A DNA stretch of 32,000 nucleotides from an uncultured archaeon (GTDB lineage: Archaea; Asgardarchaeota; Thorarchaeia; Thorarchaeales; Thorarchaeaceae): contig CAZYLT010000001.1 of assembly GCA_964648855.1 (NCBI GenBank), positions 180,001 to 212,000 of the forward strand. Direction: 5' to 3'. Shown one piece after another: positions 1,215 through 30,015 of the stretch. Positions within the stretch are counted from its first letter, which is position 1; each line of letters opens with the position of its first letter. The notes beneath the pieces were generated by a model. That model made no database searches. It was given only the letters and a program-made list of their open reading frames with translations, and was not told the DNA's origin. Both the position numbers and the translations under genes were made by a program.

Positions 1215-1556
1215 CTATTTTGGAGTCTGTTTCTTGAGGGTCCTAACTACTGATTTGAGATGTTTCTTGATGAAACGGCGGAGTCTTGGATCCTCACTTA
1301 GATAAATCATTGTAGTTGAATTCATATTATCGATGTCCCCCTCTACACATATTGCGTTGCCCAGGTCTCTTATATCACTGTGGAATACGCGTTCTATTGC
1401 ATGGGGCGAAAAGCCTTCTTTCTTGTAAACGGGCATAATTTGTCCCTTTTTCCCGCTCCCTCCAAGTTTCAGAAGTGACAAGATTAGCAGCCAATGATGC
1501 CACGCCAAGGTGTAGTTTTCGAGAAATTGCATTACTTCTTCGATGCTCTTAGACAT
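1215..1556 (-). CDS. Hypothetical protein, 113 aa (possibly winged-helix-like)
   Basis: Clean ORF co-oriented with the cluster, 33 bp after the upstream stop, GGAG upstream of the ATG. The fold is a guess. Confidence 0.75.
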   Translation of the reverse strand: MSKSIEEVMQFLENYTLAWHHWLLILSLLKLGGSGKKGQIMPVYKKEGFSPHAIERVFHSDIRDLGNAICVEGDIDNMNSTTMIYLSEDPRLRRFIKKHLKSVVRTLKKQTPK

Positions 1557-1589
1557 ATCAATGGAGTCTCCAATATGGGCAATTCATTG

Positions 1590-2993
1590 TTATTCATTTT
1601 CGTTGATTTCAGTCGATAGGGACTGGAGCCCATCTGTTTCTTCAAAATTATCAGCTCGTTCGTTTCTGTCTGCTCCATCCTTAGCAATTTTGGATAGCTG
1701 AACAGGGCGTATATTTTCACCCTCGATTTCAACTAAGCCTGCATTGACAAATTTCTGCAATTGGCCTTTCAGCCTGACAGTTGGAATTCCCAGAGCCGAT
1801 GACAAGTGTGATAAAGGAAACCATTGCGATTTATCAGCGATGACAAAATAGGCCTGAAAGGTAGGTTCATCCTCTGCGATTTGGACCAAAATATCCCATC
1901 TAGCCTCTAGTTCGCTAATTCTTGACCGAGCCAACTCTAGAGCTGACAATGTTGTTTTGTACTCGCTTCTAATTTTGGCGAGCTGACGCTCCAAATCCTC
2001 CGCTTTAACCTCTAAATCAGTACTCTCAGATTCTAGTTGATTCTTCTCGGATTGGAGATTGTCTATTGTGGACTGCTGCTGGGTTACTGTTTCCTTCAAT
2101 GAAGATACTTCCCCTTTCAGGCGGGAGATTTCTTCTGCGCTCTTCTCGTATTCCACAACCAGTTCTTCTGCAGAGTCCAGCTTCGCAATCAGCTCTTGCT
2201 GTTGCTCCACCTCTGATTGTGCTTGGGCAAGCTGTCCAGAGATAATTGAGTGATTTTCGTCTTTCTCTCTGATTGTGGCATAGAGGTCCTCCTTTTCGTC
2301 TTCTAACTTCGTGAGTTCATCCCGTAAATCAAAGAGTTTCTGCTCCTTCTGCTTATTGGTTTCATTCATTTCATTTATTTCGGTACTCAGCGCCTTGTTC
2401 TTGGCTCGTGCCATTTCCAATTCGTGTTCTCGTTCATTCAGCAAAGCATGAGCCTTAACTAATCTAGTTCTCAAAACCCCGACATTCGATTGTAACGCCT
2501 TAGTTGAACCACGGCTTGCTTTTGATAGGATATCATGTATCTCTTTCCGGCTCTCCTCAACAGCCTCATACACATGATGCAGTGAAGTTTCCGGCGATAA
2601 TGACTCGCTCAATTCCTTTTTAACAACAGATACTGCAAGATTTGTGAAAACCCCCAGACCTGCATCCTGAAGTTTCTTTAGAATGCGCTCTATTGCCTTA
2701 TCCGCCTCTTGTTGTACTGTACTCTCTGTGGTTCCCAAGCTGTCCTCAATAGACGAAAGAATATCATTCATTCTCAATTCGATACGTTCATAGGTTGATC
2801 TAATTGAATCTGTTAATTCTGGGGCAGTCTGTTCAGGAGGTGCCGATGACTTCATGTGCCCCATGGAATCGGAGTCAGATTCTTTCAAGGCCTTTTGCAT
2901 CAGGTTTCTGGTCTTCTGTTCAATCTCAGAATCATCTTCGAAATCCTTTTCGTCGTTGGAAGGCACGGGCATTTCCTCAGTGTAGTATTCCAC
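1590..2993 (-). CDS. Long coiled-coil protein with C-terminal winged-helix domain (true start possibly ATG 2972)
   Basis: E/K/L/Q-rich heptads at about aa 175-370. The C-terminal FPLSHLSSALGIPTVRLKGQLQKFVNAGLVEIEGENI fits a wHTH pattern. ATG 2972 lies 4 nt after the upstream TGA. Confidence 0.85.
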   Translation of the reverse strand: MEYYTEEMPVPSNDEKDFEDDSEIEQKTRNLMQKALKESDSDSMGHMKSSAPPEQTAPELTDSIRSTYERIELRMNDILSSIEDSLGTTESTVQQEADKAIERILKKLQDAGLGVFTNLAVSVVKKELSESLSPETSLHHVYEAVEESRKEIHDILSKASRGSTKALQSNVGVLRTRLVKAHALLNEREHELEMARAKNKALSTEINEMNETNKQKEQKLFDLRDELTKLEDEKEDLYATIREKDENHSIISGQLAQAQSEVEQQQELIAKLDSAEELVVEYEKSAEEISRLKGEVSSLKETVTQQQSTIDNLQSEKNQLESESTDLEVKAEDLERQLAKIRSEYKTTLSALELARSRISELEARWDILVQIAEDEPTFQAYFVIADKSQWFPLSHLSSALGIPTVRLKGQLQKFVNAGLVEIEGENIRPVQLSKIAKDGADRNERADNFEETDGLQSLSTEINENE

Positions 2994-3354
2994 GATAACC
3001 GAGAGCTGTCAACTTCGATGTGGTATTATTTAGTTTCTCAGAAACACGCGAAGCTTCCTGTATCTTCGACATGAGCTCTTTCCGAAATTCGGTAGTTGAT
3101 AGCTCGCCTCGGTCTAGACGTTCGGTGAGCTTTGCGCGGTCGTCTTGTAGAACTTGCCGCTTCCGCTTGAGTCGTTCATATTCAGCAACAAGAAACACCA
3201 ATTCACTTTTTTCCTCGTCATCCAGTGACTCAACACTCGGTGCTCCTCGCCCACTATCAGGTTTGTCTCCACTAGTTAGGATTTCTCTTCCACGTTTTTT
3301 CTGTTCTTTCTCTTTCTTTTTTCCGCGACGTCTCCATCTGTCAAGTAGTCCCAT
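2977..3354 (-). CDS. Small helical protein with basic N-terminus and coiled-coil hairpin
   Basis: MGLLDRWRRRGKKKEK start; hairpin motif LDRGELSTTEFRKEL; GGAG upstream; tightly packed in the operon. Confidence 0.8.
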   Translation of the reverse strand: MGLLDRWRRRGKKKEKEQKKRGREILTSGDKPDSGRGAPSVESLDDEEKSELVFLVAEYERLKRKRQVLQDDRAKLTERLDRGELSTTEFRKELMSKIQEASRVSEKLNNTTSKLTALGYRGILH

Positions 3355-3374
3355 TTTTCGGTCTCCTATGATTG

Positions 3375-3941
3375 TTATGTCAACATTAATCGGATCTTCT
3401 CAAGCTTTGTTTCGAGCTCCTGTCGCATTTCTCTGGCAACAGCAGCCTTGTTTTCATATTCTTCTGCCTCAGCAGGATCATTCAGTGCCATTTCTAGCAG
3501 TTCATTTTCCTTTTCAAACAGCATAGCGATTTTGGATGAGAGCTGCATTGATTCCTTCTCAAGCTCAGTCCGGTCAGCATCTTCAAGTTCTTGTTCTTCT
3601 AATAGCTCATCCTCTGATTGAATTTCCTCCCCAACAATGTACTCAGATTCAAGCTCTTTGAGGCCGCCATTTTCGCTTTTTAAGCGGACCAAAATCCCTT
3701 CCTTGAGAGTTGCCTCAAGCGTCATCATTCGCTCTTCGATTTGCCTCATCTTTGACTCTAGGCGTTTGATCACAATGGTTTGATTTTCAACAGTCTTGAA
3801 AATCTCATCTGCAAATTGTTCAAAATTAAGCCCATATTTGAAGCTATCAAGAATATCCTTTATATTAGATATCTCGCTCACCAGCTTCTTTCTTTCTTCC
3901 TCGCTCACCAGGCTTTTGATTCTATTACTTTCATTAGACAT
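3375..3941 (-). CDS. Acidic coiled-coil protein, 188 aa
   Basis: Two heptad-rich segments separated by an acidic linker; starts 2 bp after the GTPase stop. Confidence 0.82.
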   Translation of the reverse strand: MSNESNRIKSLVSEEERKKLVSEISNIKDILDSFKYGLNFEQFADEIFKTVENQTIVIKRLESKMRQIEERMMTLEATLKEGILVRLKSENGGLKELESEYIVGEEIQSEDELLEEQELEDADRTELEKESMQLSSKIAMLFEKENELLEMALNDPAEAEEYENKAAVAREMRQELETKLEKIRLMLT

Positions 3942-3943
3942 AT

Positions 3944-4825
3944 TTAGTCAACCTCTATATCCCGTACTACTTTGAAATCAATTGTTTCAAATGCCAGCCC
4001 TCGAAGAAGACCTAGCCATCTATCTCTAAAGTCCCGTTGATTAGCCTGCATCCCATAGGCAGGAATTCCAAGTTTCTTGCCCACTGTTTCTGGGGACAAC
4101 GCCCCTGTGATATCTTGTTTGTTTGCAATCGCTATTATTCGAGCATAGGGTAGTTCGTTCTTCACAACAGGATATGCAACCCTTCGCGTCCAAGCAAGAT
4201 TATCATTAGTGGAATCTGTGACTACAAAAACCATACTACCAGATCGTATTATTTTGCCCCACTCTTGTACGAATCGGTCCTGACCGCCCAAATCAAACAT
4301 ACTGAAGACGTAGGGGTCGAAATTTGCCTTTAGTAGGGCTTTATCTCCGAAGAATGTCGGTACATACTCCTGCGGCGGGCCTTTGGATGGTAGAGTGGCA
4401 AGCTCGAGTAATGTGGTTTTTCCGGTACCCCCATGCCCTGCCAGACAGACTTTCACAGGAATACGGCCTATAATTTTCCTGAAACCAGCTTCGAATGGAG
4501 CAAAGTCAGTTGTTTTCCAGTCATCGGTTTCCAGGTCCTTTTCGAACGCAGTCATAAAACGAGATACCAATTCAATGAGGGCTTCTTCAACCTTGTTTAG
4601 TGAGGCTTGCCTGTCCATTGTCAAAATGAATTGCGTATCATGACTATTGATGTAGACGTACCTGAATCGTTCTATTTCCATGCTATCGATTGTCCACTCT
4701 TGCATCTTCTTTGCAGATGATGAAACCAGCATCATGACTGCATCATTATCTAAATCCTTACTGGATACTATTGTGTCAGAGAATAGGGTACGGTCCTCTT
4801 TGAATACATGAATTGCTCTAATCAT
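3944..4825 (-). CDS. Longin-domain / Arf-like small GTPase fusion
   Basis: G1 GHGGTGKTT, G2 YVPT, G3 DLGGQ, G4 NKQD, with the Arf-like context ANKQDITGALSPETVGKKLG. The N-terminal ~120 aa fits a longin pattern (MIRAIHVFKEDRTLFS...RYVYI...QFILTMD...LIELVSRF). Confidence 0.9.
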   Translation of the reverse strand: MIRAIHVFKEDRTLFSDTIVSSKDLDNDAVMMLVSSSAKKMQEWTIDSMEIERFRYVYINSHDTQFILTMDRQASLNKVEEALIELVSRFMTAFEKDLETDDWKTTDFAPFEAGFRKIIGRIPVKVCLAGHGGTGKTTLLELATLPSKGPPQEYVPTFFGDKALLKANFDPYVFSMFDLGGQDRFVQEWGKIIRSGSMVFVVTDSTNDNLAWTRRVAYPVVKNELPYARIIAIANKQDITGALSPETVGKKLGIPAYGMQANQRDFRDRWLGLLRGLAFETIDFKVVRDIEVD

Positions 4826-5070
4826 TCAGGAGTCACCACTTGAACCCAGCTCAGTACATTAGTCAAACTAGGTATCCATTTGGAAAGATGTGTTGTATCG
4901 CGATTCATTATTGCACTTGAACAATTCAAAGAATAAGAGCATATTGTGTTTGTCGTGTTAAAAACTGAATATTCGGGGTATCCTCTGGCTAGAAGCACCT
5001 GTATTCTCGTAGACTGACCAGAAGATATCTCCATGAAATTCATTTTCAAAACAACCTGTAGGTTTTGGAT

Positions 5071-5106
5071 AGAAAAGAGGCGAGAGAATTAGCTAACTCT
5101 CCCGCC
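5071..5106 (-). terminator. Hairpin plus T-tract terminator after the giant surface-protein gene
   Basis: Minus strand GGCGGGAGAGTTAG/CTAATTCTCTCGCC, an inverted repeat with two G-U pairs, followed by TCTTTTCT. It begins 13 nt after the TAA. Confidence 0.65.
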
Positions 5107-5119
5107 CATATTCGCCGGT

Positions 5120-8100
5120 TTATTCTGCCGAGTCCTCTGACACATCCTCCTCACTTTCGAGTTCTTCCGAGGGGACGTCTTCATCTGATGGCAACTCACC
5201 ATCTACAACCTCCTCCTCGGTTGTTTCATCTTCAGTTGACTTGTCTTCATCTGAAGCTTCTTCGGTTTCTTCAACGTCCGATACTGCAGGCTCTTCCTCG
5301 ACAGGTTCTTTCTTGATGTCTTCTAGTTCTGTTCCCTCGTGTGTTGCCTCCTCCTGCACATCTTCCGCGTCCCACTCGAGCTCCTCTGCTTCATCCTCGT
5401 CCAGAGGTTCTTCTTCTGGGGGCGCCTCTTCCTCGAGGTTTTCTTCTTCTATAGCTTCTTCCTCTTCCATCATCGAGTCGAGTTCTTCTGAGAGCTCCTC
5501 CTCATAGTCGGTTGCTTCAATGTCTGCCATCTCTTCTCCCAGACCATCAATCTCGTCAAGGGCATCTAGCTCACCGAGCAATTCATCTGCCTCGCCGCCC
5601 AGTTCCTCGAATTCCTGCTCCGGGCTAACATCTATTGTTGGTGCTCCCATATCGAGTTCAGCAAGCCCAGGAGCCAAGAGATCGGATATGACCTCACCCA
5701 TGTTCTTGAGGCCTTCGACTTCTGCGCGGTCGCCATCCTCAATATCCTTGAGTGCGCCATTGATTTGCTTTATCTGGAAGGGTATTTTCCATCGCTGATA
5801 TCCAACAGCAATCGCACCAACTACCACAAAGATACCAGTCATGATGAGAATTGTTTGTAGGAGGGATACAGGGAGCCTTACGATTCCTAGTATGCCAATA
5901 GTCTGTTCTGAAATGGTAACCCTAATCACCTGTTCAGTTTGATTCCTGTACATTGGGGCTGAAGCTGAAGCCAATAGCTGATATGGCTCTGCCCTCACGT
6001 CTCCAATCTGGCTGCTCGTTAGTTCTATCACGTAGTGAGTTCCGTTGAATTCGAAATCACCTGCGGACAGAGTGAATTCAGTCGTGGGTGTTTGCAGCGT
6101 CAAACTGCTGATTGTTGATGGTCCAATAGGCGAGTCACTCGATATATCGAGATACTCTATTGCAATTAGGAAGGTGTCTCCTTCTTCTGCAACTACATCG
6201 GGAGCCACAAGGGACGTTTCCGAATAAATAGATAGAACAGGAGCCACAGATTGAGTCGTATAGTTCTGCAGAGTTGCTGATATATTCAAAGTGATTACAC
6301 CTGGTACTTCAGAAACATCAACCTCAGAAGGATTGAATGTCAATCTGTACATCTGACTGCTGCTCTGATACGTGGCAGTGTATGTCGTTCCTGCGAATTG
6401 CATGGTAATAGTTGCACCAGTCAGGCTGCCTGTGAGATCTACTTCTGTATCATCAATCTCATAGGTCAGCATGATATCGAGTCCGGTAGTTCTGTAGAAG
6501 ACCTCGTAAGAGAGGCTCTCTGGGTCGAGCGAAGTGTCGACAGGGAGAACAGTAACAGGTAGCTCAAGGTCTGGTATTGTGTAATTTTCATTGGCGACCT
6601 TCACGATCAGGGTATGGTCACCTGCAGGTACTTGGTCCGACGAAACCACTGCAGAGTAGTCATGGGAAGTCGGCTGATAGTTCAACAGATAGACTGTTGG
6701 GAATCCAGACCAAACATAGTAGACCGTGGCACCATCAATGCTCACATTGCCACCATAGATGTTGTTCACATTCACTCTGAGGTTGAATTCATTAGTCCAT
6801 TTTATTTCAACAGACTCGGGAGTTGTCAGTTCATCTCTGAAGATAGCTCCCTCAACAGGGACCACTGTCACATCAGTATCGTTTGTGTTATCAACAAAAT
6901 TTGGCATGGTGTATGTGAAGTCAAGGTTGTATGGATTTTCTGAGGCTGAGAACCATTCATCCGATTCGATAGTTCCCGTGAAGCTTCCATCGCCATTGTT
7001 ATCTAACTCCAAGCTCATTGTGCCCCAGCTGACCGTGACAATCGCATTCTCCCAAATTAGTCCACCATGACGGTCATCATAGAGATGCGCCGTAATGTCA
7101 AAGGAGGCAGACCAATTCACAGGGTCGATTGGGTCAATCACAAGAGAAGCATCTGTTTCCTGTACAAGAATAATCACTGTCGTGAAGTCATGCATCTCGA
7201 AGCCTAATTTAGTCATCTCTATTTGAATGACATAGACCGGTCCTTCGCCAAACACATTCATTCCCAAGCCACGAGTGTCAACAGTGAATCCATAGGTACC
7301 ATCGCCATAGTCGTTTGTGTCTACAATAGCGGTATCAAGGTCAACCAAGTAATATGATGCGAGGTCAGGTGATAATACTGGAGCGTTATCGAGTGTGTTG
7401 TTCCAGTAGAATCTAACCTCGAATACATCAGCATAGTACTTCTCATAGTAATCTAGTTCTAGTACTATTTCATTTGGCACCGCCAGTATTCTGACGAAGA
7501 TGGTCGTTGAATCTGAAGTTGCACCAGCCTTTGTGGCTACGATTTCAATCTCGTAGAGGTCCTCTTGAGGCACTGCATCATTGGCATCAAGGGATTTGTT
7601 ATAGATGCCACCACTGAAGTCATCTAAATCACCGCTCTGGTCGATAACTGATTCCAAGAACCAGTTGTAACTAACTGTGGCACCATCGACGGGTGCTCCA
7701 ATTGATTGGTCCAGCAGAAGGATTTCCAGGCTAAATGATTGTGTCCAGTATACTTCTAACGGATTCTCTGCTGAGCCATATTCCGCCTCAATGAACAATG
7801 GGACTCGGATATTAATGGTGAGAGGAACCATGTATGATTCATGATTGGATTTACTGAGATTGAGCTCAAATATGTATGTGCCAGAGTCGAAAGCTCCACC
7901 TACTGAAACAGTGTAGATTCCATTCCCCTCGTAGGTTAGAGATACTGTATCGTCCCATGTGTGAGTGAATGTGGCATCATCTAGCCCAGCATTGCCTGAG
8001 GTCCGAGTGTAGTTCACCTGATAGGTTGCAGAATCTAACCAATCGATGGTCTGCGAATCAGATCCTACAACCTCAAGATTTGTTGGTGCCCTAGATACAG

Positions 8101-11100
8101 TCAAGAAGTCAGCCAAAGCTCCTGTAGCTTCCTGATAGTTGACTTTTGAACAGGTGATTGTTACATTCCAATCACCCACAGGCAAGAGATCCTTGTTGAA
8201 GGTGTACGTGAATTGCTCCCCAATTTCGGACAAAGTTCGACTCACATTTAGATATGAAGTGCCAGCATCAGTGTACCATCTGATTGTCACAGATACTCCA
8301 CTCAGACCGGCATCAGTGTTGTTTCCAGGTAGATTGAAGACGTATGAAAATGTCAAGGAATGAGGTGTGGTATCCCAATCATAGTCAACTACACTCAAAT
8401 CTGTTACAAGCATCGGCACTTCTGAAATCTCTAATGAAATGGTAAAAGTCTGGTTGACATAGTTTCTCTTTTCTAGCGAGATGCTCATTGAGTAACTGCC
8501 CACCGGCAAGTCATTCAAGGCCGTAGCAGATAGCGAGTATGAACCATTTGCATTATCCACCAAGTCTCCTGAGTAGCTTGTGCCAATCACCAAGAAGGAA
8601 TATGTTCCAAGACCCGTCACATTCGCATCATTATCTGAGTCATATAACCAGAATAAGTACTCCGAATGAGTGTTGTAGTATTCGGCGATTGTACTGGTTT
8701 CTTTTCCAGCACTGGTTCTGGCGGGATTCACATCGATGTAGATAGTCATCGGCGATGGATCGTTATAACTGGCGCTGTCAGAGTGAGCTCTCACGGTCAT
8801 TACGTATTGACCATCGATGACATTGAGGCCCCACGCAGTGGCATTAATGACGATGCTGAAGTTAATGGAAGAAGTACTAGTTATCCAAGTGCCGCTCCCA
8901 GCCCAAGTATCTTCGAAATAGGTCACACCATCATAGCTGACAGAAATATTCAGCCATGTCTTCGTAGATATTTCGGAGGTTGTCGTTTCTCCATCCCTGT
9001 CATACCATCCGACGACTAGTCCAGAGTTGTTTGTATTCCAACGGATATTAACAATACTAAGAGTTGAATTCAATTCAGTGTAAGCATCGGGATATGCGGG
9101 CGTCGTTATGTTAATCCAGTTGAAGTACTCCCAATCATAATCCACCTTTGCTCCAAGTAGCTGTGCACTTTCATCACCTGAAACTACGGTAATATTGTAA
9201 GATACCGGGGAATAATATGGTGATGAGATATTTCCATGGATATAGTAGAATATTATCCAGCCAGTGCTGTTTGTTTTGCCCTGAGCAATAGGATTCAGTG
9301 AAGGTGTTCCATCCACGAGTGTTACATTTACGTCGGCATTGGATACGGGGTAGTCTTCACCTTGTTCAGTAGTGACCCTTATCCTTAGCTGGCTTATTGG
9401 TAGTTCAACAGTCTTTGATTCATATCCCTGAAGATCGTTGATTGTTTCGGTATCATTTAAGGCAGTAGGTGTATCTCCATAGAGATCATCTTTGGTTACC
9501 TCAATGCTCCAAGTACCGTTTACAATCCTATAGAATGTGAATTGACCTGAGGAGTTTGTCCATTTCGTGATTTGGTAGCCAGTTTCATTCTGATTATCGA
9601 TTACAACCATTGCATTGTCAACAGGGAGATCATCCCAACTCTCTACGTAGATATCGAGTGTGGTGAGAGGTAGTACCCAATCCGGATGTTCGAAGGATCC
9701 AGATGAGAACTCATCGACTGATAGAGACCAACTTCCAAACTTATCCATGTCCGAGTAGAGATAGCTATCAACAGGCCCATCATATCTAACAAAAACATTG
9801 TAGTCAGCAGCAGGCATTCTATAGAATCTCGCCCATCCGGTACTATTAGTTTCCTCGTAATGCAGGAATACATCTGGGCTGCTACCATTGGTAACACGGA
9901 CAGTAGTTGTATCATCCGGGGTTGCATCCATGGAATTGCCCATCAAATCCTCAAAGTGAAGACTGAAGCTCGCCATTTCCAGCGTGATTTCAATAGGTGT
10001 TACTGATCCAGTTATTGCATGGTCAGAAGTATTGGTCACCCAAATGGAACCAGATGGAGTCGGAGAAAGCCAGTTAGAAGCATCTATCCTCGTTCTCACT
10101 TCGTAGGTTGCATTTAGAAGGCCCTCGAATATTACCAGGCCGTTAGAATCGGTTACACCGGTTCGATTTCTGCCCTGTTCATCCAACCATAGCGTACTGT
10201 CTGTGGAATTGTGGAGTGTAACTTGTGCCCCTTCAACGGGGACTCCGTCTAGGTCAACAACAGTAATATCGAACTCGAATAAATGACGCTCATCGCCTTG
10301 TACAATGGCAAGACCATTCTCATCAGCCTCAGGCGTGTATGCAGGCACATGCCACCCGTATCCCGTATCGCTTGTTGGATTATAGGGCGAGGAGGTAGAG
10401 AATAATCCAAGATCAACTACTCCAATACTCGCATTGGATTCAATATGATAGAGTGACATACTTGAGGCGACAGGACGAAATGCTGCCATTCCGCCTGCAG
10501 GTATCTCAAGAGTCCCACCATTATATCCGGTAACCTTGACTTCTGCATTCTCCAAAGCCACAATCATGAACTTGTAGGAATTAATACCCCAGAGTTTGAA
10601 GGAAGAGCCGAATCGATGTCCTGAAGTAGTGGGTATCCAATCCCCTGCGTCTCTGGCATTTGTTGGGTCATAGAGACCTTCCACCATGAATGTATCTCCA
10701 GAATTGCGAGCCTTCAAGTGAAGAATGTCCTCTGGGTTAGTATCGCTTGCCGTTCCGGGATTGATTGATTGTGAGCTGTTGGCGGATATATCGAGATAAC
10801 CACCATATGACCATCCTGAGCCTGAATTTCTCCACCAGTCCACAATTATCGTGGTTTCTTCTAGGTTTGTGACTCGTGTTCTGTCCTTGGAGTGACCCAT
10901 GTCAATTGTATAGAACTCGTTTCCTGCAAGCCGACCATCAATTGCGGGATAAAACCCCCAGATATCTCTCGCATGTGACGCATCATCGTCACCGGCCCTG
11001 ATGGATACTGGCTTCGTTGAATTTACTTTCTTATAAGCAGTATAGAGAACATCTCCCTTGCTGATATACTCTCCCGCATCCAAAGTCACTGGCCAATCGG

Positions 11101-12136
11101 TATCTGATATTGACGTTTGATTATAGAATGCCCATCCGGACTCTGCGGAGCCAGATATGCTGGTAACCCAGACATCGGTGTCGTTCTCGTGAGCTTGAAT
11201 CCAGTACATTCCCTCATTTCTATCATCAAATCCTTCGACACCCCCGATGACAAAATGAGTTCCAGTCCCTTGGCTCATTTCATTTACCCCTGGGAACCAG
11301 TCATTCATTGCAGAATTGGAGCCCTCATCTCCTTGACCCATGCTGACAGCCATCGGAAAGTTAGAGTATATCGCATAATAACCATGGAATAGGGAATACG
11401 AGTAGCTACTTGGTTCATAGCGAGCAGCATCATATTGGTCAAGAGTGCCGTTTGGAACATTGCTTGGATACACGCTTCCGCTAGTTCCAGACCATCGGTC
11501 ATCAAGGTTCCTTGGATCGTCCCATGTCTTGCTTGAGGGGTCATACATCTCAATGAGGTAGTTGTTATCATCATAATACGAAACTAGACTCAGGAGAGAG
11601 AATGTGTAGCTCTTGTAGATGAATGGATAGAATTCAGGATAACTCACAGACCCGACATCTTCTTTGGCGTAATAGACATAGTAATTCTGCTCAGTTGCTC
11701 CCTCGGAAACATTGACCATAAAGCTGACCCTAGTTGAGAGAATGTAGTTGCCAGTTTCATCATAGGTAGTATTCCAAGTTTGGAATGGTAGCAGAGTCCA
11801 GTCGGGGTCGTTATAGTACGCCACGCGTATAGAATCACTGTAGCAATGACCCTCGACGAATGTGAGATACAGATGAACGGGAGAGAGGGTGCGAGAAGAA
11901 ATGCCTGGTTCTGTGAAATTGAAATAGCGTCTGTAGATATATGTGCTATTCCACCAATTTGCCTCGTCTTGAATGCCCGCAACTTCTAGATTACCATGAC
12001 GAATTTGTAGTGAATTGTCCGCATCTAGAACTGGATTCTGATTTACAGCATTAGTTGAAGGATTGCCCGTTGCCAGAGGAAGCAACAACACTATTGCAAG
12101 TGCTGCTAGTATGAGGAATTTAGTCGAACGCTTCAA
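5120..12136 (-). CDS. Giant type-I membrane/surface glycoprotein (2338 aa): signal peptide, DUF2341-like, IgGFc-binding-like, carboxypeptidase-regulatory-like and Ig-like repeats, one TM helix, acidic tail
   Basis: Signal MKRSTKFLILAALAIVLLLPLATG; WWNSTYIYRR; repeats such as DLDGVPVEGAQVTL...TDSNG; about 100-aa beta-rich repeats; many N-x-S/T sequons; TM LLQTILIMTGIFVVVGAIAVGY; E/D-rich C-terminus. The TTG start abuts the upstream TAG. Domain names were assigned by eye. Confidence 0.92.
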   Translation of the reverse strand: MKRSTKFLILAALAIVLLLPLATGNPSTNAVNQNPVLDADNSLQIRHGNLEVAGIQDEANWWNSTYIYRRYFNFTEPGISSRTLSPVHLYLTFVEGHCYSDSIRVAYYNDPDWTLLPFQTWNTTYDETGNYILSTRVSFMVNVSEGATEQNYYVYYAKEDVGSVSYPEFYPFIYKSYTFSLLSLVSYYDDNNYLIEMYDPSSKTWDDPRNLDDRWSGTSGSVYPSNVPNGTLDQYDAARYEPSSYSYSLFHGYYAIYSNFPMAVSMGQGDEGSNSAMNDWFPGVNEMSQGTGTHFVIGGVEGFDDRNEGMYWIQAHENDTDVWVTSISGSAESGWAFYNQTSISDTDWPVTLDAGEYISKGDVLYTAYKKVNSTKPVSIRAGDDDASHARDIWGFYPAIDGRLAGNEFYTIDMGHSKDRTRVTNLEETTIIVDWWRNSGSGWSYGGYLDISANSSQSINPGTASDTNPEDILHLKARNSGDTFMVEGLYDPTNARDAGDWIPTTSGHRFGSSFKLWGINSYKFMIVALENAEVKVTGYNGGTLEIPAGGMAAFRPVASSMSLYHIESNASIGVVDLGLFSTSSPYNPTSDTGYGWHVPAYTPEADENGLAIVQGDERHLFEFDITVVDLDGVPVEGAQVTLHNSTDSTLWLDEQGRNRTGVTDSNGLVIFEGLLNATYEVRTRIDASNWLSPTPSGSIWVTNTSDHAITGSVTPIEITLEMASFSLHFEDLMGNSMDATPDDTTTVRVTNGSSPDVFLHYEETNSTGWARFYRMPAADYNVFVRYDGPVDSYLYSDMDKFGSWSLSVDEFSSGSFEHPDWVLPLTTLDIYVESWDDLPVDNAMVVIDNQNETGYQITKWTNSSGQFTFYRIVNGTWSIEVTKDDLYGDTPTALNDTETINDLQGYESKTVELPISQLRIRVTTEQGEDYPVSNADVNVTLVDGTPSLNPIAQGKTNSTGWIIFYYIHGNISSPYYSPVSYNITVVSGDESAQLLGAKVDYDWEYFNWINITTPAYPDAYTELNSTLSIVNIRWNTNNSGLVVGWYDRDGETTTSEISTKTWLNISVSYDGVTYFEDTWAGSGTWITSTSSINFSIVINATAWGLNVIDGQYVMTVRAHSDSASYNDPSPMTIYIDVNPARTSAGKETSTIAEYYNTHSEYLFWLYDSDNDANVTGLGTYSFLVIGTSYSGDLVDNANGSYSLSATALNDLPVGSYSMSISLEKRNYVNQTFTISLEISEVPMLVTDLSVVDYDWDTTPHSLTFSYVFNLPGNNTDAGLSGVSVTIRWYTDAGTSYLNVSRTLSEIGEQFTYTFNKDLLPVGDWNVTITCSKVNYQEATGALADFLTVSRAPTNLEVVGSDSQTIDWLDSATYQVNYTRTSGNAGLDDATFTHTWDDTVSLTYEGNGIYTVSVGGAFDSGTYIFELNLSKSNHESYMVPLTINIRVPLFIEAEYGSAENPLEVYWTQSFSLEILLLDQSIGAPVDGATVSYNWFLESVIDQSGDLDDFSGGIYNKSLDANDAVPQEDLYEIEIVATKAGATSDSTTIFVRILAVPNEIVLELDYYEKYYADVFEVRFYWNNTLDNAPVLSPDLASYYLVDLDTAIVDTNDYGDGTYGFTVDTRGLGMNVFGEGPVYVIQIEMTKLGFEMHDFTTVIILVQETDASLVIDPIDPVNWSASFDITAHLYDDRHGGLIWENAIVTVSWGTMSLELDNNGDGSFTGTIESDEWFSASENPYNLDFTYTMPNFVDNTNDTDVTVVPVEGAIFRDELTTPESVEIKWTNEFNLRVNVNNIYGGNVSIDGATVYYVWSGFPTVYLLNYQPTSHDYSAVVSSDQVPAGDHTLIVKVANENYTIPDLELPVTVLPVDTSLDPESLSYEVFYRTTGLDIMLTYEIDDTEVDLTGSLTGATITMQFAGTTYTATYQSSSQMYRLTFNPSEVDVSEVPGVITLNISATLQNYTTQSVAPVLSIYSETSLVAPDVVAEEGDTFLIAIEYLDISSDSPIGPSTISSLTLQTPTTEFTLSAGDFEFNGTHYVIELTSSQIGDVRAEPYQLLASASAPMYRNQTEQVIRVTISEQTIGILGIVRLPVSLLQTILIMTGIFVVVGAIAVGYQRWKIPFQIKQINGALKDIEDGDRAEVEGLKNMGEVISDLLAPGLAELDMGAPTIDVSPEQEFEELGGEADELLGELDALDEIDGLGEEMADIEATDYEEELSEELDSMMEEEEAIEEENLEEEAPPEEEPLDEDEAEELEWDAEDVQEEATHEGTELEDIKKEPVEEEPAVSDVEETEEASDEDKSTEDETTEEEVVDGELPSDEDVPSEELESEEDVSEDSAE

Positions 12137-13300
12137 CTATTCCACCTCCATGGTTGCAGATGCATTGACAGGATGAAAGTTCTTCAGCACTTCCAGATAG
12201 TGAGTCGCTTGTCTGCTGGGAATGTCTTCATCATTATACAGATGGACAGTCCGTTCTATCAGCCACTCAGGATATACTGTCACGACCTCGGGGCTGCAGT
12301 TCAGCATAACATGCTCTCGACCGTCCTCGTCATTAATTCTAAGCACAATGTTCCCCTTCTCTAGCTTTGTTATCACTTTTCGAATCTTGGACTTCGTCTC
12401 ATCAAGCAGGTCCGGTAGGTCTTCTGTGAGCTGCGGACTTTTTCTGAGAATCTTGATAAGGTCATAGGCATCGAAGTCAAGGAGATATTCTGCAAGTTCT
12501 TCTGCTTCAAGCCAAATAGTTTCAGAGAGATCACGCCGGAGCCGTGCGATGTAGTTCTTGTGGTAGCGCTTAGCAGTACTCAAGTACTGTTCACCAACCT
12601 CCGAAGAAAATCCACCCGACCGCACCTGTTTGAGTGTTGCTGGAGATGTCTTCCGGAGGATGAGTATAGCTCTAACAAGATAGATCACCTCAGTTGAGAG
12701 TCCCTCAACCCATCCAGTGGCGATTATGCCCATCTTCACCAAAGGACGGAGAACTATATCCATATCGATTTTCTTACCGACTTCTTCAAAGATGATTTGT
12801 TCGAGGTCGCTTGATTCAATTGTACCATTCCGAGTTAGGGTCTGAAGAATGGCTCGGCGAACGGGATCGTTCAACACGGATGCCTGCTGTTGCTCTGGTG
12901 TCATCATGGTATACCGAGCTATCTGCTTGTACAGCTTTGGCACCATGGCCTTGTAATTATCATCTTCCGTATTCAAGAAAATCTGAGTTGCAATTTCAGG
13001 TAACGCATCCTTGTAAACCTCTGGGGCTTCATCAGGATCCAGAACCAAGAACACCATGGAGGGTTTTCCCTTCATGTGCATGTTCAACCCACCATAATAC
13101 ACGGCAAGTTTGAAGTCGTCGAACGAAAGGGATGTAAATCCTGGCTTCTGAGACTCTTCAGTTTCTCCGAGGGTGGCAATTCCGTATACTCTCATACTCG
13201 TCGTGGGATCCAACCCAGTCTTGAAATTCTTGGGTGTTTTGGCAGTGACTACCGGACCGAGTTCATCGTCCCACTTTAAAACAGCTAATCCTTTGGGCAT
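12137..13300 (-). CDS. uDENN/longin-like plus winged-helix protein (NPRL2-like architecture)
   Basis: N-terminal LAVLKWDDELGPVVTAKTP resembles the uDENN/NPRL2 'F-x-x-x-x-GP' start. Two wHTH-like segments follow: LNDPVRRAILQTL... and YDLIKILRKSP...IRKVITKLEKGNIV. The CDS is secure; the family call is moderate. Confidence 0.8.
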   Translation of the reverse strand: MPKGLAVLKWDDELGPVVTAKTPKNFKTGLDPTTSMRVYGIATLGETEESQKPGFTSLSFDDFKLAVYYGGLNMHMKGKPSMVFLVLDPDEAPEVYKDALPEIATQIFLNTEDDNYKAMVPKLYKQIARYTMMTPEQQQASVLNDPVRRAILQTLTRNGTIESSDLEQIIFEEVGKKIDMDIVLRPLVKMGIIATGWVEGLSTEVIYLVRAILILRKTSPATLKQVRSGGFSSEVGEQYLSTAKRYHKNYIARLRRDLSETIWLEAEELAEYLLDFDAYDLIKILRKSPQLTEDLPDLLDETKSKIRKVITKLEKGNIVLRINDEDGREHVMLNCSPEVVTVYPEWLIERTVHLYNDEDIPSRQATHYLEVLKNFHPVNASATMEVE

Positions 13301-13554: not shown

Positions 13555-14736
13555 TTATTTATCTGTTCGTTCCAAAATAGCCACAATCATATTATTTCCG
13601 AATCCGCCAATATTGTGTGTAAACCCTCTACATGCATTAGGAACCTGCAGGGCTTTAGGAGCTCCATTTATGAGTTGTAGGAAAACATCATGGATCTGAG
13701 CAACACCGGTCGCACCAGTCGGATGGCCCCGTGACTTCAGGCCTCCGGTTGTGTTGATTGGCGTCTTACCGTCAACCTCAGCATCTCCCGATTTGATTAT
13801 TTCAATGCCTTGCCCCTTTTTAGCCAGCCCCACATCCTCGATGTCAATAATCTCCAAGATGGAGAATGCATCATGCAGTTCAAATACGTCTATGTCTTCA
13901 GGGCGCATCTTTGCCATTCTGAATGCATCTCTCGCTGCTTTCACCGTTGCCGATAGAGATGTAAGGGAATCTCTGTGCTGGACTGCCAGGAAATCGGTTG
14001 CATGTCCTATTCCCTTGATTGTAGCCGAGTCGCCGATGACACCCAACGTTCTTGCTTTATCAGCAGATGCTAGTACAAGGCTGGCTGCCCCGTCGCTAGT
14101 TGGACAACAATCAAAGAGAGTAAGGGGGCTCGATACTATGGGGCTTTCGTTCACCTTTTCCACAGTAATCTCTTTTTGAAAGTGGGCTAAGGAATTTCTC
14201 GCTCCGTTTCTATGAGCCTTTACAGGAACTAGGGATAACTCATTGCGAGTGAGTCCATAATCATGCAGATATCGGCAAGCAATTAGGGCCGCCAAGGAAG
14301 CTGGTGTTGCGCCGTAGCGGGTTTCATTCTCTCTCGATATCATCTTGGCGAGGATAGCGGATGCTCGTTCACGAGAAACCTCTGACATCTTCTCCACACC
14401 GATGACCAAGACTAATTCCGCTAAACCAGAACGAATCATAGCAAAACCAGCCTCGAATGCACTTGCACCTGATGAAGGTCCGCTCTCAATACGACTCCCC
14501 CCAGCTGGAACGATACCCAACTCATCAGCCATTAGAGTCGATAAATGACCTACTCCAGTAAATTCATCGGGATTCTGAGAAGCTACGAAGATATGGTCGA
14601 TTTTTTCTCCAGATGCCTGAGAGTCCTCGAGTGCCTTAATTGATGCCTCCTTGGCGAGGTCTACAATGGATTCATCCAAGCGCCCGAAATTGGTCATTCC
14701 AGCCCCAATGATATGAACAGGTTCCAACACAACCAC
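13555..14736 (-). CDS. Thiolase-superfamily protein (SCP2/archaeal type) lacking the catalytic cysteines
   Basis: IIGAGMTNFG, DCCPTSDGAA, ELHDAF, GGLKSRGHPTGATG and HNIGG motifs. The nucleophile loop reads ESGPSSG. Confidence 0.92.
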   Translation of the reverse strand: MVVLEPVHIIGAGMTNFGRLDESIVDLAKEASIKALEDSQASGEKIDHIFVASQNPDEFTGVGHLSTLMADELGIVPAGGSRIESGPSSGASAFEAGFAMIRSGLAELVLVIGVEKMSEVSRERASAILAKMISRENETRYGATPASLAALIACRYLHDYGLTRNELSLVPVKAHRNGARNSLAHFQKEITVEKVNESPIVSSPLTLFDCCPTSDGAASLVLASADKARTLGVIGDSATIKGIGHATDFLAVQHRDSLTSLSATVKAARDAFRMAKMRPEDIDVFELHDAFSILEIIDIEDVGLAKKGQGIEIIKSGDAEVDGKTPINTTGGLKSRGHPTGATGVAQIHDVFLQLINGAPKALQVPNACRGFTHNIGGFGNNMIVAILERTDK

Positions 14737-15291
14737 CTACTCAATGAGAATCAACAAATCACTGGGTACGACAGACATGCCTGGTTCCACATTTACTTCC
14801 ATAACTTTGCCAGACTTGGGCGCCTTCAGTTCGTTGAACATTTTCATGGCTTCAAGAATGCACAGCGTATCGCCTTCTTGTACTGCATCATTGACAACAA
14901 CATGGACTTCTGTTATTTTTCCAGGCATTGGAGGGTAGATCCCGTCAGGATTCTTGGCTCCTGCGGATGACGATGGCGAGACCGGAACACGGGTATCCGC
15001 CTTCTTTGCTCGTATCCACTCTAACGTATACTCTTCACCATCTAATTGGATTGATACAGTATTGCCAGACCGTTTTAGTACTTCCACTTGGTGATCCGTT
15101 GTCCTGTCATTCACGATCCAAACGCCATCTTCTCCCTTTGTAGGTTTCATGGTAAAGCTTTGGTCACCTATTTTGACAACAACCACTCCACCCTCATCCA
15201 ACAAGTCGACCTCGACATCATAAGTCACATCGGCTAGTTTGGCTTTGTATTCAGGACTCATTGTTGACCACTTGATACGTTCTCCTATCAT
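14737..15291 (-). CDS. Biotin carboxyl carrier protein (likely start ATG 15261)
   Basis: PPMPGKI...EAMKMFNELKAPKSGKV biotinyl domain, P/S/A-rich linker and beta-rich N-terminal domain. Confidence 0.93.
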   Translation of the reverse strand: MIGERIKWSTMSPEYKAKLADVTYDVEVDLLDEGGVVVVKIGDQSFTMKPTKGEDGVWIVNDRTTDHQVEVLKRSGNTVSIQLDGEEYTLEWIRAKKADTRVPVSPSSSAGAKNPDGIYPPMPGKITEVHVVVNDAVQEGDTLCILEAMKMFNELKAPKSGKVMEVNVEPGMSVVPSDLLILIE

Positions 15292-15350
15292 CAGGCATTT
15301 TAATTATGCCCTCATTTCATTTACCCTGTTTGATGTTGATATTGATTGTA

Positions 15351-16919
15351 CTATAATCGTCGTGTCTGTTCTCTTCTTCCAGAAACAGTCCATTGTGAGG
15401 CAGCTTTCGCCCATCTTCCTGCTGCCGCTTGAACAGGTTGCCTTTGTCCATCTTCGCGCCCATTTGCAGTCCACATATCTCCCGTACCAGAGGGGACAAT
15501 CGAGAACCCACCCCGTTTATTCATCATATGAAGGACCGATGCTATTATAGCAAGCTGGTCTTCGGGAGTCATTTCACCATGTTGCTTTCGTTTTGACTTT
15601 CGTACTAGAAAGTCAAGGGCGTATTGAGGATAGAGGGCGTAGGATATCTCATCGCGACGGTCATGTTCAATACCCTTCAGAGCCTCTCTCGCTTTAGGAA
15701 TCTCAGTTGAAAGCAAGCTCGCTGGGCGCTCCTCAAGGGTCTCTTCATCCCCTATGATTTTCTCTCTGATTTCGGGGTCTATTGGCGCTGGAGGTCGGCC
15801 ATATAAACCGCGAACGTACTGCTTTACTTCGTGCGGAACCATTTTGTATCGTTCGCCTGTTATAACGTTCATAGTTGCTTGAGTACCAACGATTTGAGAC
15901 GATGGCGTCACTAATGGTGGGTAACCTAAATCAGCTCGCACTCTTGGAACCTCTTGAAGGACCTCGTCATATCGGTCCAAGGCACCCTGTTCTCTAAGTT
16001 GATTGTCTAGATTTGATAGCATCCCTCCAGGAATCTGCCAGATCAGAACCTGAGGATTGACGCCCTTGAGACTGCCTTCAAATTCAGAATAATTCCGTCT
16101 GATATCTCTGAAGTAATCTGCAATCTCTGATAGGAGATTTATATCAAGACCCGTATCACGTTCTGTTCCTTTTAGAGCCTCGACAATAGATTCGACAGCC
16201 GGTTGAGAAGTTGCCATAGAGAGGGGGGAAATTGCACAGTCCACAACGTCAACGCCTGCCTCTGCCGCCTTCAAATATGCCATTGAGGCCATCCCACTGG
16301 TATAATGGGAGTGCAGCTGGATTGGGATGTCCAACTCGTCTTTCAACTTGGTAACTAGATCGTAAGCAGCAGTTGGCGTGATTAATCCTGCCATGTCTTT
16401 GATACAGATTGAGTCTGCATCTAAGGCGTACAAATCTTTGGCCTTCTCCACGAATCTCTCATTATTGTGGACGGGGCTGAGGGTATAACAGAAGCTTGCC
16501 TGAACATGTCCGCCTTCACGCTTTACGAACCGCATGGATGGTTCCATGTTTCTTACGTCGTTCAGCGCATCGAAAATCCGGAAAATATCTATGCCAGCTT
16601 TGACTGCCTCTTCTATGAATGCTTCGAGGACATCATCACTATATTGACGATACCCAACGATATTTGACCCTCTTAGTAGCATCTGGAATGGCGTCTTTGG
16701 CATTGCATCCTTTAGCTTCTCCACGCGTTCCCAAGGGTCCTCGTCCAAAAATCGCATCATGCTATCAAAAGTGGCTCCGCCCCACATTTCGAGTGAATAG
16801 TAGCCCACCTGGTCGATTGTTTCGCATATAGGTAGCATGTGCTCAGTACGCATCCGAGTCGCAATCAATGATTGATGTGCGTCACGAAGAGTAGTATCAG
16901 TAATCTTTAGTTTCGTCAT
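15351..16919 (-). CDS. Pyruvate/oxaloacetate carboxyltransferase (transcarboxylase 5S / OadA / PycB type) with no biotinyl domain and a C-terminal epsilon-like extension
   Basis: DTTLRDAHQSL, EMWGGATFD, FRIFDALND, CIKDMAG, HSH, QIPGGMLSN and PPLVTPSSQIVG motifs; no EAMKM. Confidence 0.93.
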   Translation of the reverse strand: MTKLKITDTTLRDAHQSLIATRMRTEHMLPICETIDQVGYYSLEMWGGATFDSMMRFLDEDPWERVEKLKDAMPKTPFQMLLRGSNIVGYRQYSDDVLEAFIEEAVKAGIDIFRIFDALNDVRNMEPSMRFVKREGGHVQASFCYTLSPVHNNERFVEKAKDLYALDADSICIKDMAGLITPTAAYDLVTKLKDELDIPIQLHSHYTSGMASMAYLKAAEAGVDVVDCAISPLSMATSQPAVESIVEALKGTERDTGLDINLLSEIADYFRDIRRNYSEFEGSLKGVNPQVLIWQIPGGMLSNLDNQLREQGALDRYDEVLQEVPRVRADLGYPPLVTPSSQIVGTQATMNVITGERYKMVPHEVKQYVRGLYGRPPAPIDPEIREKIIGDEETLEERPASLLSTEIPKAREALKGIEHDRRDEISYALYPQYALDFLVRKSKRKQHGEMTPEDQLAIIASVLHMMNKRGGFSIVPSGTGDMWTANGREDGQRQPVQAAAGRWAKAASQWTVSGRREQTRRL

Positions 16920-17057
16920 GGCGGAACATAGCTATGTCCACGGCGATAGTATATAGTAGTTCTGCTGCGTTCAGTTTTCAGAATGCTATCATGAGAAAGA
17001 AATCTTGCATTCCTAATTCCTTATGTAAGGAAACTGACAGAGAAGGAATGAAATATC

Positions 17058-17288
17058 TTGAATGATGAAAGACTGTGGGGCTACGAGGGATGCGGTTGTA
17101 TGTGGAACTTTTTCACTGACCGCAACACAGCGTATTCCAAGGCCGAAAAGAACACCGTCCGGGAAGTCACACTTGAGCGTGCATATGAGCTGGATAACAA
17201 ACGTAGGCAGGAACTTGGCTTCAATAAGATCACTATAGAGGATTTCAAGGAGTGCATTGACCGTCCGATGAATTGCAACGAACAATAG
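17058..17288 (+). CDS. Possible small hypothetical protein (76 aa, CGC motif)
   Basis: Fills an otherwise empty gap and has protein-like composition, but has a TTG start. A nearby ATG at 17048 with a ribosome-binding site is out of frame. Confidence 0.35.
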   Translation: MNDERLWGYEGCGCMWNFFTDRNTAYSKAEKNTVREVTLERAYELDNKRRQELGFNKITIEDFKECIDRPMNCNEQ

Positions 17289-17383
17289 CGTACATTTTCC
17301 GTTATCATCAAACTTCTCATGCATGAGAGATAATCTATTCCTGTTTTTGCTGCGGCTAAACTTCGTCTACCAATAGGCTTTAG

Positions 17384-18043
17384 ATGTGGTTGAAGTTGCG
17401 GAATCGTAGAAGCGGAAGTGACCTAATGAAACGCATTATCTTCAACCCTAATGTGTACAGATTTCTGTATTATGTAGACCGCCTATTTCCAGATAATGAG
17501 GTGCAGAAGTCAGTCCTAGATTGTGGAGCAGGCGGCAAAATACCTCCACTGGGTCTGTTACATCAACTTGGTTTTGATACATGCGGTATTGACATCTCGG
17601 AAAATCAGATTGAGAGGGCCAAGCGGTTTGAAGAGGAACATAATGTAGACCTCAATATACAGAAAGGAGATATGACAGACCTTCCCTTCGATGATGAGAG
17701 CTTTGGGTATGTCTACTCGCAGAATTCCATTTTCCATCTCACCAAACATAATACAGCAAAAGCCATGCAAGAAATGAAGAGGGTTCTAAGATCCCAAGGA
17801 TTTCTGTATGTGAATTTTTTGTCTGTTGAAGATCAAGGCTATGGAGAGGGAGAAGAAGTTAGACCGGGCGAATGGAGAGCTCTGGAGGATGGGGAACCCA
17901 CAGTTCATAGTTATTATCAGGATAATGAAGCAGACCAATATTTCATGGACGCAAGAATCATTCTCAAGGAAAAAAGGATTCTCGATTCTCGATTTCATAA
18001 TCGTAAGATGGTATATATTGAATACATTGCGAGAAAGGAATGA
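17384..18043 (+). CDS. Class I SAM-dependent methyltransferase (likely start ATG 17426)
   Basis: VLDCGAGG, GIDIS, GDMTDLPFDDESF and EMKRVLRSQG motifs. Confidence 0.92.
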   Translation: MWLKLRNRRSGSDLMKRIIFNPNVYRFLYYVDRLFPDNEVQKSVLDCGAGGKIPPLGLLHQLGFDTCGIDISENQIERAKRFEEEHNVDLNIQKGDMTDLPFDDESFGYVYSQNSIFHLTKHNTAKAMQEMKRVLRSQGFLYVNFLSVEDQGYGEGEEVRPGEWRALEDGEPTVHSYYQDNEADQYFMDARIILKEKRILDSRFHNRKMVYIEYIARKE

Positions 18044-18108
18044 GATTGACGTAATCCTCATTTTTCCGCTTCCTCTTTATTCATTAACTCAAATGCTGAT
18101 GTCAGCTC

Positions 18109-18636: not shown

Positions 18637-18749
18637 GCCCTCTAAAAGCCCATCTATTAGATTCTAGAGCATCTAGATAGCCCCAAAAATTACGCAATTA
18701 GTATTGCTACGTCGGACAGATTAGTTAATAGTCAGCTAGATACGGCTAA

Positions 18750-18819: not shown

Positions 18820-18865
18820 GTCCATTCATTGGGGGGACTATGATGAAACACAGATATTCTCAAGG

Positions 18866-30002: not shown

Positions 30003-30015
30003 TTCTCATCATTCT

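Follow-up and report, generated by a model that had tools for sequence, protein, structure and literature searches.

The seven-gene locus

This study concerns a compact group of genes in a stretch of DNA from an uncultured archaeon (GenBank assembly GCA_964648855.1, contig CAZYLT010000001.1, positions 180,001 to 212,000), whose products include a giant surface glycoprotein, a longin-containing adaptor and an Arf-like small GTPase. The whole 32,000-nucleotide stretch is called the window, and coordinates given without a genome or locus label are positions within it. The group, referred to as the cassette, consists of seven open reading frames (ORFs) named g7 to g1 in order of transcription, all of which are on the minus strand and together span positions 1215-13300. 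The initial annotation had proposed seven co-oriented genes in two tight units, and we confirm every ORF, its strand and the span. The host genome is of the Thorarchaeota type, and the closest named relatives of g7 are from Thorarchaeota metagenome-assembled genomes (MAGs) with 90% identity. Below, G000 denotes the present genome, G016 a genome of the sister family, L with a number a fetched locus, and f with a number an Asgard family.

The first unit begins with g7 (12137..13300), which codes for the adaptor, the hub of the cassette and a protein of 387 amino acids (aa) composed of a longin and two winged helices. It abuts g6 (5120..12136), which codes for a giant type-I single-pass surface glycoprotein of 2338 aa; the gap between them is 0 bp, and a purine run that resembles a ribosome-binding site is located within the final g7 codons ahead of g6. 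This spacing and the modelled folds uphold the earlier description of the unit as a longin-winged-helix protein abutting a giant single-pass protein with immunoglobulin (Ig) repeats. A gap of 294 bp then separates g6 from the second unit. It contains a possible terminator at 5078..5107 (minus strand), a 13-pair hairpin followed by a T-run 3' of g6 that is a consensus match only. Over the whole region terminators number 11 versus 9.8 in shuffled sequence, which is no excess, and promoter counts likewise show no excess over shuffles.

The second unit begins with g5 (3944..4825), which codes for a longin joined to an Arf-like small GTPase (293 aa). It is followed after 2 bp by g4 (3375..3941), coding for an accessory helical/coiled-coil protein of 188 aa, and after a further 20 bp by g3 (2977..3354), a core member of the cassette that codes for a helical hairpin of 125 aa. 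The accessory gene g2 (1590..2993) codes for a long coiled coil of 467 aa when read from a GTG codon, in which case it overlaps g3 by 17 nucleotides; an alternative ATG start at 2972 would instead leave a gap of 4. Finally, 33 bp separate g2 from g1 (1215..1556), which codes for a conserved basic protein of 113 aa without a known family. Profile-profile comparison of the seven genes indicated no clear paralogy, with the best probability (13%) obtained for g3 versus g4. Since gene order is kept in relatives whose g7 and g5 are 63-81% identical, these sequence comparisons argue that the clustering of the seven genes is not due to chance.

Surface protein, adaptor and longin-GTPase

The g6 product comprises a signal peptide, a head of ~570 aa, an Ig/prealbumin-like stalk, one transmembrane (TM) helix, a juxtamembrane motif and an acidic tail, with Pfam matches to Ig_DR_A0283-like, CarboxypepD_reg and SdrD_B. 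There are 48 sequons outside the cell versus 26 expected and none in the cytoplasmic tail, which beyond its first 60 residues is 50% aspartate or glutamate. Scans of Pfam and NCBIfam returned no family for the head; a DUF2341 or IgGFc-binding head was a guess that these family scans did not confirm. The TM helix (5798..5863, minus strand; aa ~2092-2113) is a hydrophobic stretch found at the same position ahead of the motif in homologues. The juxtamembrane motif itself (5615..5803, minus strand; aa 2112-2174), defined by an alignment of 63 sequences, is the predicted docking site of g7. Among g6 orthologues the motif is 62% identical, the head 58% and the stalk 42%, and among tail-motif proteins in general the ectodomains vary widely with the ~60-residue motif after the TM helix being kept.

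G000 codes for five tail-motif proteins, counting g6. The others are a 5062-codon giant (contig C5, 57381-72566), two tandem giants of ~2600 codons each (C8, 75826-91442) and a protein of 171 aa that is almost nothing other than TM helix and tail motif (C5, 38275-38799). Elsewhere, L090 (14006-14437) and L091 (5757-6200) contain proteins of ~145 aa with two TM segments and a tail motif that have no ectodomain and that overlap the start of a g7-type gene; a decoy or a pure anchor is a possible role for these.

The motif and the g7 domain also occur fused in single proteins. Fusions in the order ectodomain, TM helix, motif and g7 domain form nine clusters at <50% identity, in addition to two tandem genes of L088, and in these proteins the g7 domain starts about 30 residues past the motif. 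Reverse fusions occur in three further proteins, where the motif directly follows the g7 domain and there is no TM helix. A word-indexed search for longer fused relatives of g7 had come back blank, and the full HMMER search that later found them identifies this blank as a sensitivity miss. Both fusion orders would be expected if the tail motif and g7 bind each other.

Structure prediction points in the same direction. A complex of g7 with the 63-residue g6 tail was predicted with a score of 0.80, versus 0.04 for the best of three controls; in a benchmark, which is only a rough guide when our own alignments are used, 58 of 80 solved complexes scored at or above this mark, as did 2 of 110 mismatched pairs. 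Contacts agree by at least 94% among runs, and the partner has a predicted local distance difference test score (pLDDT) of at least 81. The predicted interface on g7 consists of residues 213-262 and 340-378 as well as residue 156, with none in the longin, and this location in the C-terminal half fits the reverse fusions, where the motif comes after the last helix. A sequence search of the PDB found no similar solved complex. The prediction supports binding of the tail by g7, without demonstrating it. Thus the link proposed earlier between receptor tail and longin-winged-helix protein has gained a conserved motif, fusions in both orders and a favorable predicted complex.

An AlphaFold2 (AF2) model of g7 (pLDDT 90) contains a longin at residues 1-132, winged helix 1 at ~146-217, intervening helices, winged helix 2 at ~259-339 and C-terminal helices. 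The best fold match is the Loki longin 8yqg (Z 11.6, root-mean-square deviation (rmsd) 3.5, 127 aligned residues), with the g7 longin matching GATOR1 chain 8fw5_B at Z 11.3 (rmsd 2.8, 122 aligned). Additional matches are to the yeast SEA complex, Lst4, DENND1A (Z 9.7, residues 1-132 only) and the folliculin/FLCN complex (Z 9.6). The modelled domain sits among longins, and the closely spaced Z values single out no one family. In a structure-atlas search, NPR2-family clusters were the first named matches to cover the longin (template-modelling scores 0.32-0.38). Some alignments to GATOR1 and SEA chains are long and of poor quality (rmsd 13-22), and whole-chain template-modelling scores to complexes of the GATOR1, C9orf72 and FLCN type are only about 0.2-0.4. 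Pfam and NCBIfam returned no family for the g7 longin, and sequence and profile searches of the PDB returned winged-helix regulators only, with no NPRL2 or C9orf72.

The g7 longin carries a WD-x3-GP hairpin motif (13253..13273, minus strand; W10-D11, G15-P16) with the same spacing as residues W33-D34 and G38-P39 of C9orf72 (PMC12290439). In an alignment of 65 family members WD is kept in 61 and G15 in 63, with the complete GP found in 20 that are mostly Thorarchaeota orthologues. In catalytic longins the arginine finger sits in the loop that connects strand 4 to strand 5. There is no arginine in this loop of g7 and no conserved arginine column there among the 65 members, where arginine columns occur only at positions 9, 13, 37, 105, 126 and 129, each at 25-52%. 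The model also has no DENN lobe, its remainder being assigned to winged helices, and none of the 65 members has a DENN hit in Pfam. Consequently, g7 has the longin fold and GP motif of a catalytic GTPase-activating protein (GAP) subunit such as NPRL2, SMCR8 or FLCN but not the arginine finger; it has the WD motif of a non-catalytic longin of the C9orf72 type but not the C-terminal DENN lobe; and it does not belong to the DENN-domain guanine nucleotide exchange factors, which combine uDENN, cDENN and dDENN. The "DENN" label given to g7 at first was therefore overstated, because what g7 contains is just a longin of the NPRL2/C9orf72 type, to which DENND1A aligns solely over residues 1-132.

Winged helix 2 of g7 matches ArsR/MarR/TrmB regulators (profile E about 5e-4, fold Z 9.0), and SIR2 and TPR domains occur as fusion partners of certain g7 domains. 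Both observations would suit a transcription regulator that is sequestered at the membrane and released from the tail upon a signal, after which the winged helices bind DNA. We regard such a role as improbable given that the putative recognition helices have a mean charge of about zero and show no conservation above that of the rest, that both wings are acidic, that at least nine clusters are permanently fused to a TM protein and that GTPase genes are recurring neighbors. NPRL2-type proteins, moreover, join a longin to C-terminal domains that do not bind DNA. As for the fusions themselves, P0040, P0082 and P0045 join a g7-type domain to a SIR2-like domain and TPRs, or to TPRs alone, so that adaptors of this type are also used with an output that consumes nicotinamide adenine dinucleotide and is possibly of a defence type.

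The g5 product consists of a longin (aa 1-119) and an Arf-like GTPase domain (aa ~123-281) that matches Pfam Arf (E 2e-11) and Arf1 in the PDB (E 5e-10). Its AF2 model (pLDDT 92) resembles Arf6 at Z 20.9 and, over residues 1-123, the VAMP7 longin at Z 15.9. The GTPase motifs G1, switch-I Thr, G3 Gln and G4 are intact and are invariant or nearly so in 43 homologues; the switch-II Trp is also invariant, and the Arg that Arf1 carries in switch II is not conserved. Orthologues within the family are 68-96% identical. The Arf family, including Asgard ArfR, is defined by an N-terminal amphipathic helix (bioRxiv 10.1101/2024.02.28.582541), and the g5 model has no such helix since its N-terminus is the 119-aa longin. 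Thus g5 is a Ras-superfamily small GTPase that is closest to Arf1 and Arf6 by sequence and fold, yet is no Arf by the amphipathic-helix test, the helix being replaced by a longin. At a paralogous locus of G000 (L063 5640-7559, contig C12), a longin-GTPase gene comes after one of the g7 type, and its product has a very acidic tail of ~360 aa like that of g6.

Inheritance, loss and spread of the cassette

An orthologue of g5 is present in 35 of the 61 genomes of the class sample. Among the loci fetched from the family, 16 have all seven genes in order and six more agree as far as their stretch reaches, with another nine having a minimal row of g7-g5-g3-g1 that is without g6, g4 and g2. In the sister-family genome G016 the two units are on different contigs, with a surface-protein gene preceding g7. 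The seven genes are consequently not one obligatory unit, and the seven-gene form is lineage-specific.

Losses of the cassette are concerted. When 28 relatives were scored for g7, g5 and g1, all three genes were missing together in 9 and g7 and g5 were jointly present in 17; a contig break accounts for the only discordant case, and one genome was ambiguous. Of 18 genomes that have no orthologue of g5, 17 gave no match to g1 (one remnant) and none gave one to g2. At four empty sites the thiolase gene that flanks the cassette is directly followed by the DUF35 gene from its other side (18 bp apart in L144), and at three more sites g3 or g1 is all that remains. Mapped onto a tree of the thiolase, the lost state requires ~10 changes, at least six of which are forced by well-supported branches, and the minimal state requires three; g6, g4 and g2 dropped out together about three times. 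Because of these joint-loss patterns and the minimal rows, the cassette is, as judged by comparative genomics, a unit distinct from its flanks that has been inherited and lost separately from them, with g7-g5-g3-g1 as its core and g6, g4 and g2 as a removable layer.

Individual loci depart from these forms in several ways. In L046, g6 is split with most of the ectodomain gone (5053-7477) and g5 has an internal stop (~7691-8572), which is either a decaying cassette or an assembly error. Tandem duplications in Thorarchaeota (L041 3-13876, L044 5653-19401, L035 and L040) either repeat the pair of g7 and a giant gene or have two different giants in tandem that share the tail motif. In one clade with the minimal cassette (L055-L058), the thiolase has on its upstream side a gene for another giant with the tail motif, which is thereby one gene away from g7. 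In L062, a locus of the sister family, a gene for a 510-aa protein that starts like a longin interrupts the row between g2 and g1 (17020-18552).

Across the phylum, g7-type genes were found in 112 of 151 genomes, and the protein family as a whole is small, with 188 representatives at 50% identity. The tail motif is present in 88 of 151 genomes and in no family without g7, in that nine families without a g7 match also have no motif match; sequence distance could hide g7 and the motif together in those nine. Of 45 g7-type genes fetched from outside the family, 27 either adjoin a gene for a tail-motif protein or include such a protein by fusion (seven other families), 23 touch a longin-GTPase (eight other families) and 12 are near a g3 homologue. 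A tail-motif protein and/or a longin-GTPase accompanies 41 of the 45, and just one has none of the three by the thresholds applied. Homologues of g3 are located at most 1.3 kb from g7-type genes in six other families. Two f13 loci (L066 6132-9935 and L070 6080-8731) have a row of giant, g7, g5, g3 and coiled-coil genes that extends to a gene for a Rab-like small GTPase, with L066 additionally carrying a further longin-GTPase in this row. Across Asgard genomes, then, pairs of g7 with a tail protein and of g7 with a GTPase recur, and the full seven-gene order is specific to its lineage.

These distributions bear on the alternative that g6 and g7 are a real structural anchor pair and that the GTPase unit is an independent operon travelling along by chance. 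Such a separation would fit the 294-bp gap with its hairpin, the different contigs in G016, the 18 of 45 outside loci that have only a surface-protein neighbor, and the lack of any g7-GTPase fusion among 150 representatives. Yet loss of g6 leaves g7 abutting g5 with a gap of at most 51 bp in nine genomes, rows of g7 and GTPase, with or without g3, occur without a surface protein in f7, f8, f12, f15 and f19, and all three g7-type genes of G000 are upstream of a longin-GTPase. We therefore think it rather unlikely that the two units are independent. The association of the adaptor with a longin-GTPase that had been suggested from this one locus is backed by their being neighbors in nine families and by their joint loss in Thorarchaeota.

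The cassette is located between a thiolase gene (13555-14736) and a DUF35/ChsH2 gene (820-1137), which are usual partners. Both flanks are metabolic, with thiolase, biotin carrier and carboxylase genes upstream and DUF35/ChsH2 and acyl-CoA dehydrogenase genes downstream. Positions 14737-22179 and 29592-31695 of the window code for biotin carboxyl carrier, carboxylase, carboxyltransferase, biotin ligase and methylmalonyl-CoA mutase together with a glyoxalase-family protein that is probably an epimerase, and this is a propionyl/methylmalonyl-CoA pathway neighborhood. The window also contains a PAS-GAF-PAS histidine-kinase-like sensor (25244-27322) that has no relation to the cassette as far as tested, and two short ORFs without a Pfam family (17013-17324 and 24551-24925), the first of which has a 49% identical homologue in L105.

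A candidate GTPase platform at the cell surface

Our preferred explanation, to which we give somewhat better than an even chance, is that the cassette codes for a membrane-docked small-GTPase platform that switches the assembly or placement of adhesion-type surface complexes. It is strongly indicated that the juxtamembrane motif of g6 would bind the helical C-terminal half of g7, which would hold g7 at the membrane and leave its longin free. It is also probable that g7 and g5 work together, a step suggested by gene context and by the behavior of longins elsewhere. In the likeliest arrangement g7 would resemble C9orf72 in being a longin partner without catalysis of its own, whose role is to position the GTPase or to modulate it. 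More tentatively, g3 might provide a second membrane contact that replaces the Arf amphipathic helix missing from g5, with g4 and g2 being lineage-specific scaffolds tied to the g6-type surface protein. One set of adaptor and GTPase may serve several tail-motif surface proteins, such as the five of G000. The likely job of the platform would be on/off switching of adhesion-type surface complexes, by analogy with a Myxococcus system discussed below. Overall, the link from surface protein to adaptor is well supported and that from adaptor to GTPase is probable, with the effector and signalling claims being hypotheses.

Three coiled-coil genes had been placed after the GTPase; a simple heptad scan agrees for g2, which has long coiled coils at 165-233 and 283-347, and for g4, which has one block at 44-82, but detects none in g3. 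A C-terminal winged helix is weakly predicted in g2 (TrmB E 0.03), for which coiled-coil hits in Pfam and NCBIfam remain below cut-off. These scans returned no family for g1, g3 or g4 and detected no Arf/Arl golgin-type effector domain in the coiled-coil genes. g4 was seen only in the full seven-gene order; its query was unmatched in 38 records that include minimal-cassette genomes, a weak negative as the divergent G016 copy was also missed. The g3 protein has a hydrophobic and basic N-terminus, a linker and a helical hairpin with a SHOCT-like turn, and its structure-atlas matches are Thorarchaeota-only clusters. Compared with shuffled sequence, amphipathicity of the g3 N-terminus falls short of significance in Thorarchaeota (p 0.07-0.3) and is supported in the majority of distant homologues (p 0.01-0.08), those of L070 and L080 being exceptions, so a membrane anchor at this N-terminus is no more than a lead. 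g1 is retained in every form of the cassette within the family, and its atlas leads are weak, being unnamed or winged-helix-like.

A stronger special case of the platform explanation, and the one proposed initially, is outside-in signalling, in which the g6 head senses a ligand or contact, g7 changes, g5 flips between its GDP and GTP states, and g4, g3 and g2 are recruited to reshape the membrane. Conservation of the head and tail of g6 alongside a variable stalk, the predicted docking of tail and adaptor, and the loss of g4 and g2 together with g6 in about three lineages are all compatible with such a relay. However, a stalk of ~2000 Ig-type residues and one TM helix offer no evident conformational relay except clustering, g7 is without a catalytic arginine, most lineages with adaptor and GTPase have neither g4 nor g2, and L124 retains g2 without g6. 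We consequently view this full relay with coiled-coil effectors as unlikely, while for the platform as such we favor neither inward nor outward flow of information.

Several points weigh against the platform explanation itself. Within the family, synteny is just as strong for the flanking thiolase, biotin carboxyl carrier protein, carboxylase, DUF35 and acyl-CoA dehydrogenase genes as it is for the cassette, so gene order there is by itself weak evidence. The genomes are MAGs that are not complete, and close relatives do not count as independent observations; the empty sites constitute the portion of the loss evidence that does not depend on MAG completeness. The tail profile was built from neighbors of g7, which makes the adjacency count partly circular. 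Residues of the predicted g7 interface are no more conserved than background (1.90 bits versus 1.94 elsewhere in the same half), and natural fusions may have taught the folding model this pair. Surface protein, adaptor and GTPase occur at one locus only in this family, in f13 and at certain f9 loci that have the GTPase gene on the opposite strand. To these must be added the missing arginine finger and the missing g7-GTPase fusion.

The proposed platform can be compared with systems known from eukaryotes and bacteria. The eukaryotic longin GAP complexes GATOR1 (NPRL2-NPRL3), C9orf72-SMCR8-WDR41 and FLCN-FNIP, which act on RagA/B, Arf and RagC/D, respectively, are the best eukaryotic fold matches of the g7 longin, and g7 is close in size to NPRL2. 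It is encoded beside an Arf-like GTPase. Unlike these complexes, g7 has no conserved arginine finger, DENN lobe or sequence-level match, there is no second such subunit in the cassette, and g7 is predicted to dock on the tail of a surface protein.

In bacteria, GltJ of Myxococcus binds MglA-GTP, AglZ and MglB via cytosolic motifs (Attia et al., PMC11135422), and this characterised analogue runs counter to the initial statement that no prokaryotic system of this kind is known. There, cytosolic motifs of a membrane protein bring in a small GTPase, its roadblock-fold regulator and a scaffold, by which an adhesion complex is controlled, and the proposed platform would have a similar layout. The scaffold AglZ is a coiled-coil protein. 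The likeness is one of analogy only, with no sign of homology for membrane protein, tail motif or adaptor and no test aimed at it. MglB is a bare roadblock, whereas g7 is a longin with two winged helices and g5 has a longin of its own.

Among Asgard archaea, NPRL2-like longins, longin-GTPase fusions and a roadblock-GTPase-DENN operon have been catalogued (Liu et al., bioRxiv 10.1101/2020.10.19.343400; Tran et al., PMC10933270; Zhu et al., PMC11914678). The cassette shares building blocks with this set, namely NPRL2-like longins and Arf-like GTPases with an N-terminal longin, but the accessible portions of these sources contain no link from them to single-pass surface proteins, to the tail motif or to the present operon. 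According to Tran et al., GTPase genes of MK-D1 are generally outside operons with longins, and pairing a GTPase with its regulator from the genome is called difficult since operons are rarely shared (PMC10933270). A literature search, mostly outside subscription journals, found no description of an Asgard longin paired with a receptor or surface protein. Thus the parts are known, and their wiring is real and undescribed in the literature searched.

A more far-reaching view is that the cassette represents an ancestral Asgard pathway from receptors to small GTPases, where variable receptors share a docking motif and recruit an NPRL2/C9orf72-like longin adaptor, with contact switching an Arf-like GTPase and the adaptor being a prokaryotic relative of eukaryotic longin GAP subunits. 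We consider this doubtful as a whole. What the cassette does provide is a candidate, open to experimental test, for a connection from cell surface to GTPase in archaeal relatives of eukaryotes. Asgard genomes contain dozens of small GTPases and longin proteins, and the cassette names concrete partners, a tail, an adaptor and a GTPase, all with cytoplasmic parts that are small enough for pull-downs and kinetics. If the link is true, it would offer a candidate relative of the GATOR1 and C9orf72 longin regulators and would bear on how Asgard cells position adhesion proteins and contact partners. It would also show that an Asgard GTPase of the "eukaryotic signature" kind was attached to the cell surface before organelles existed.

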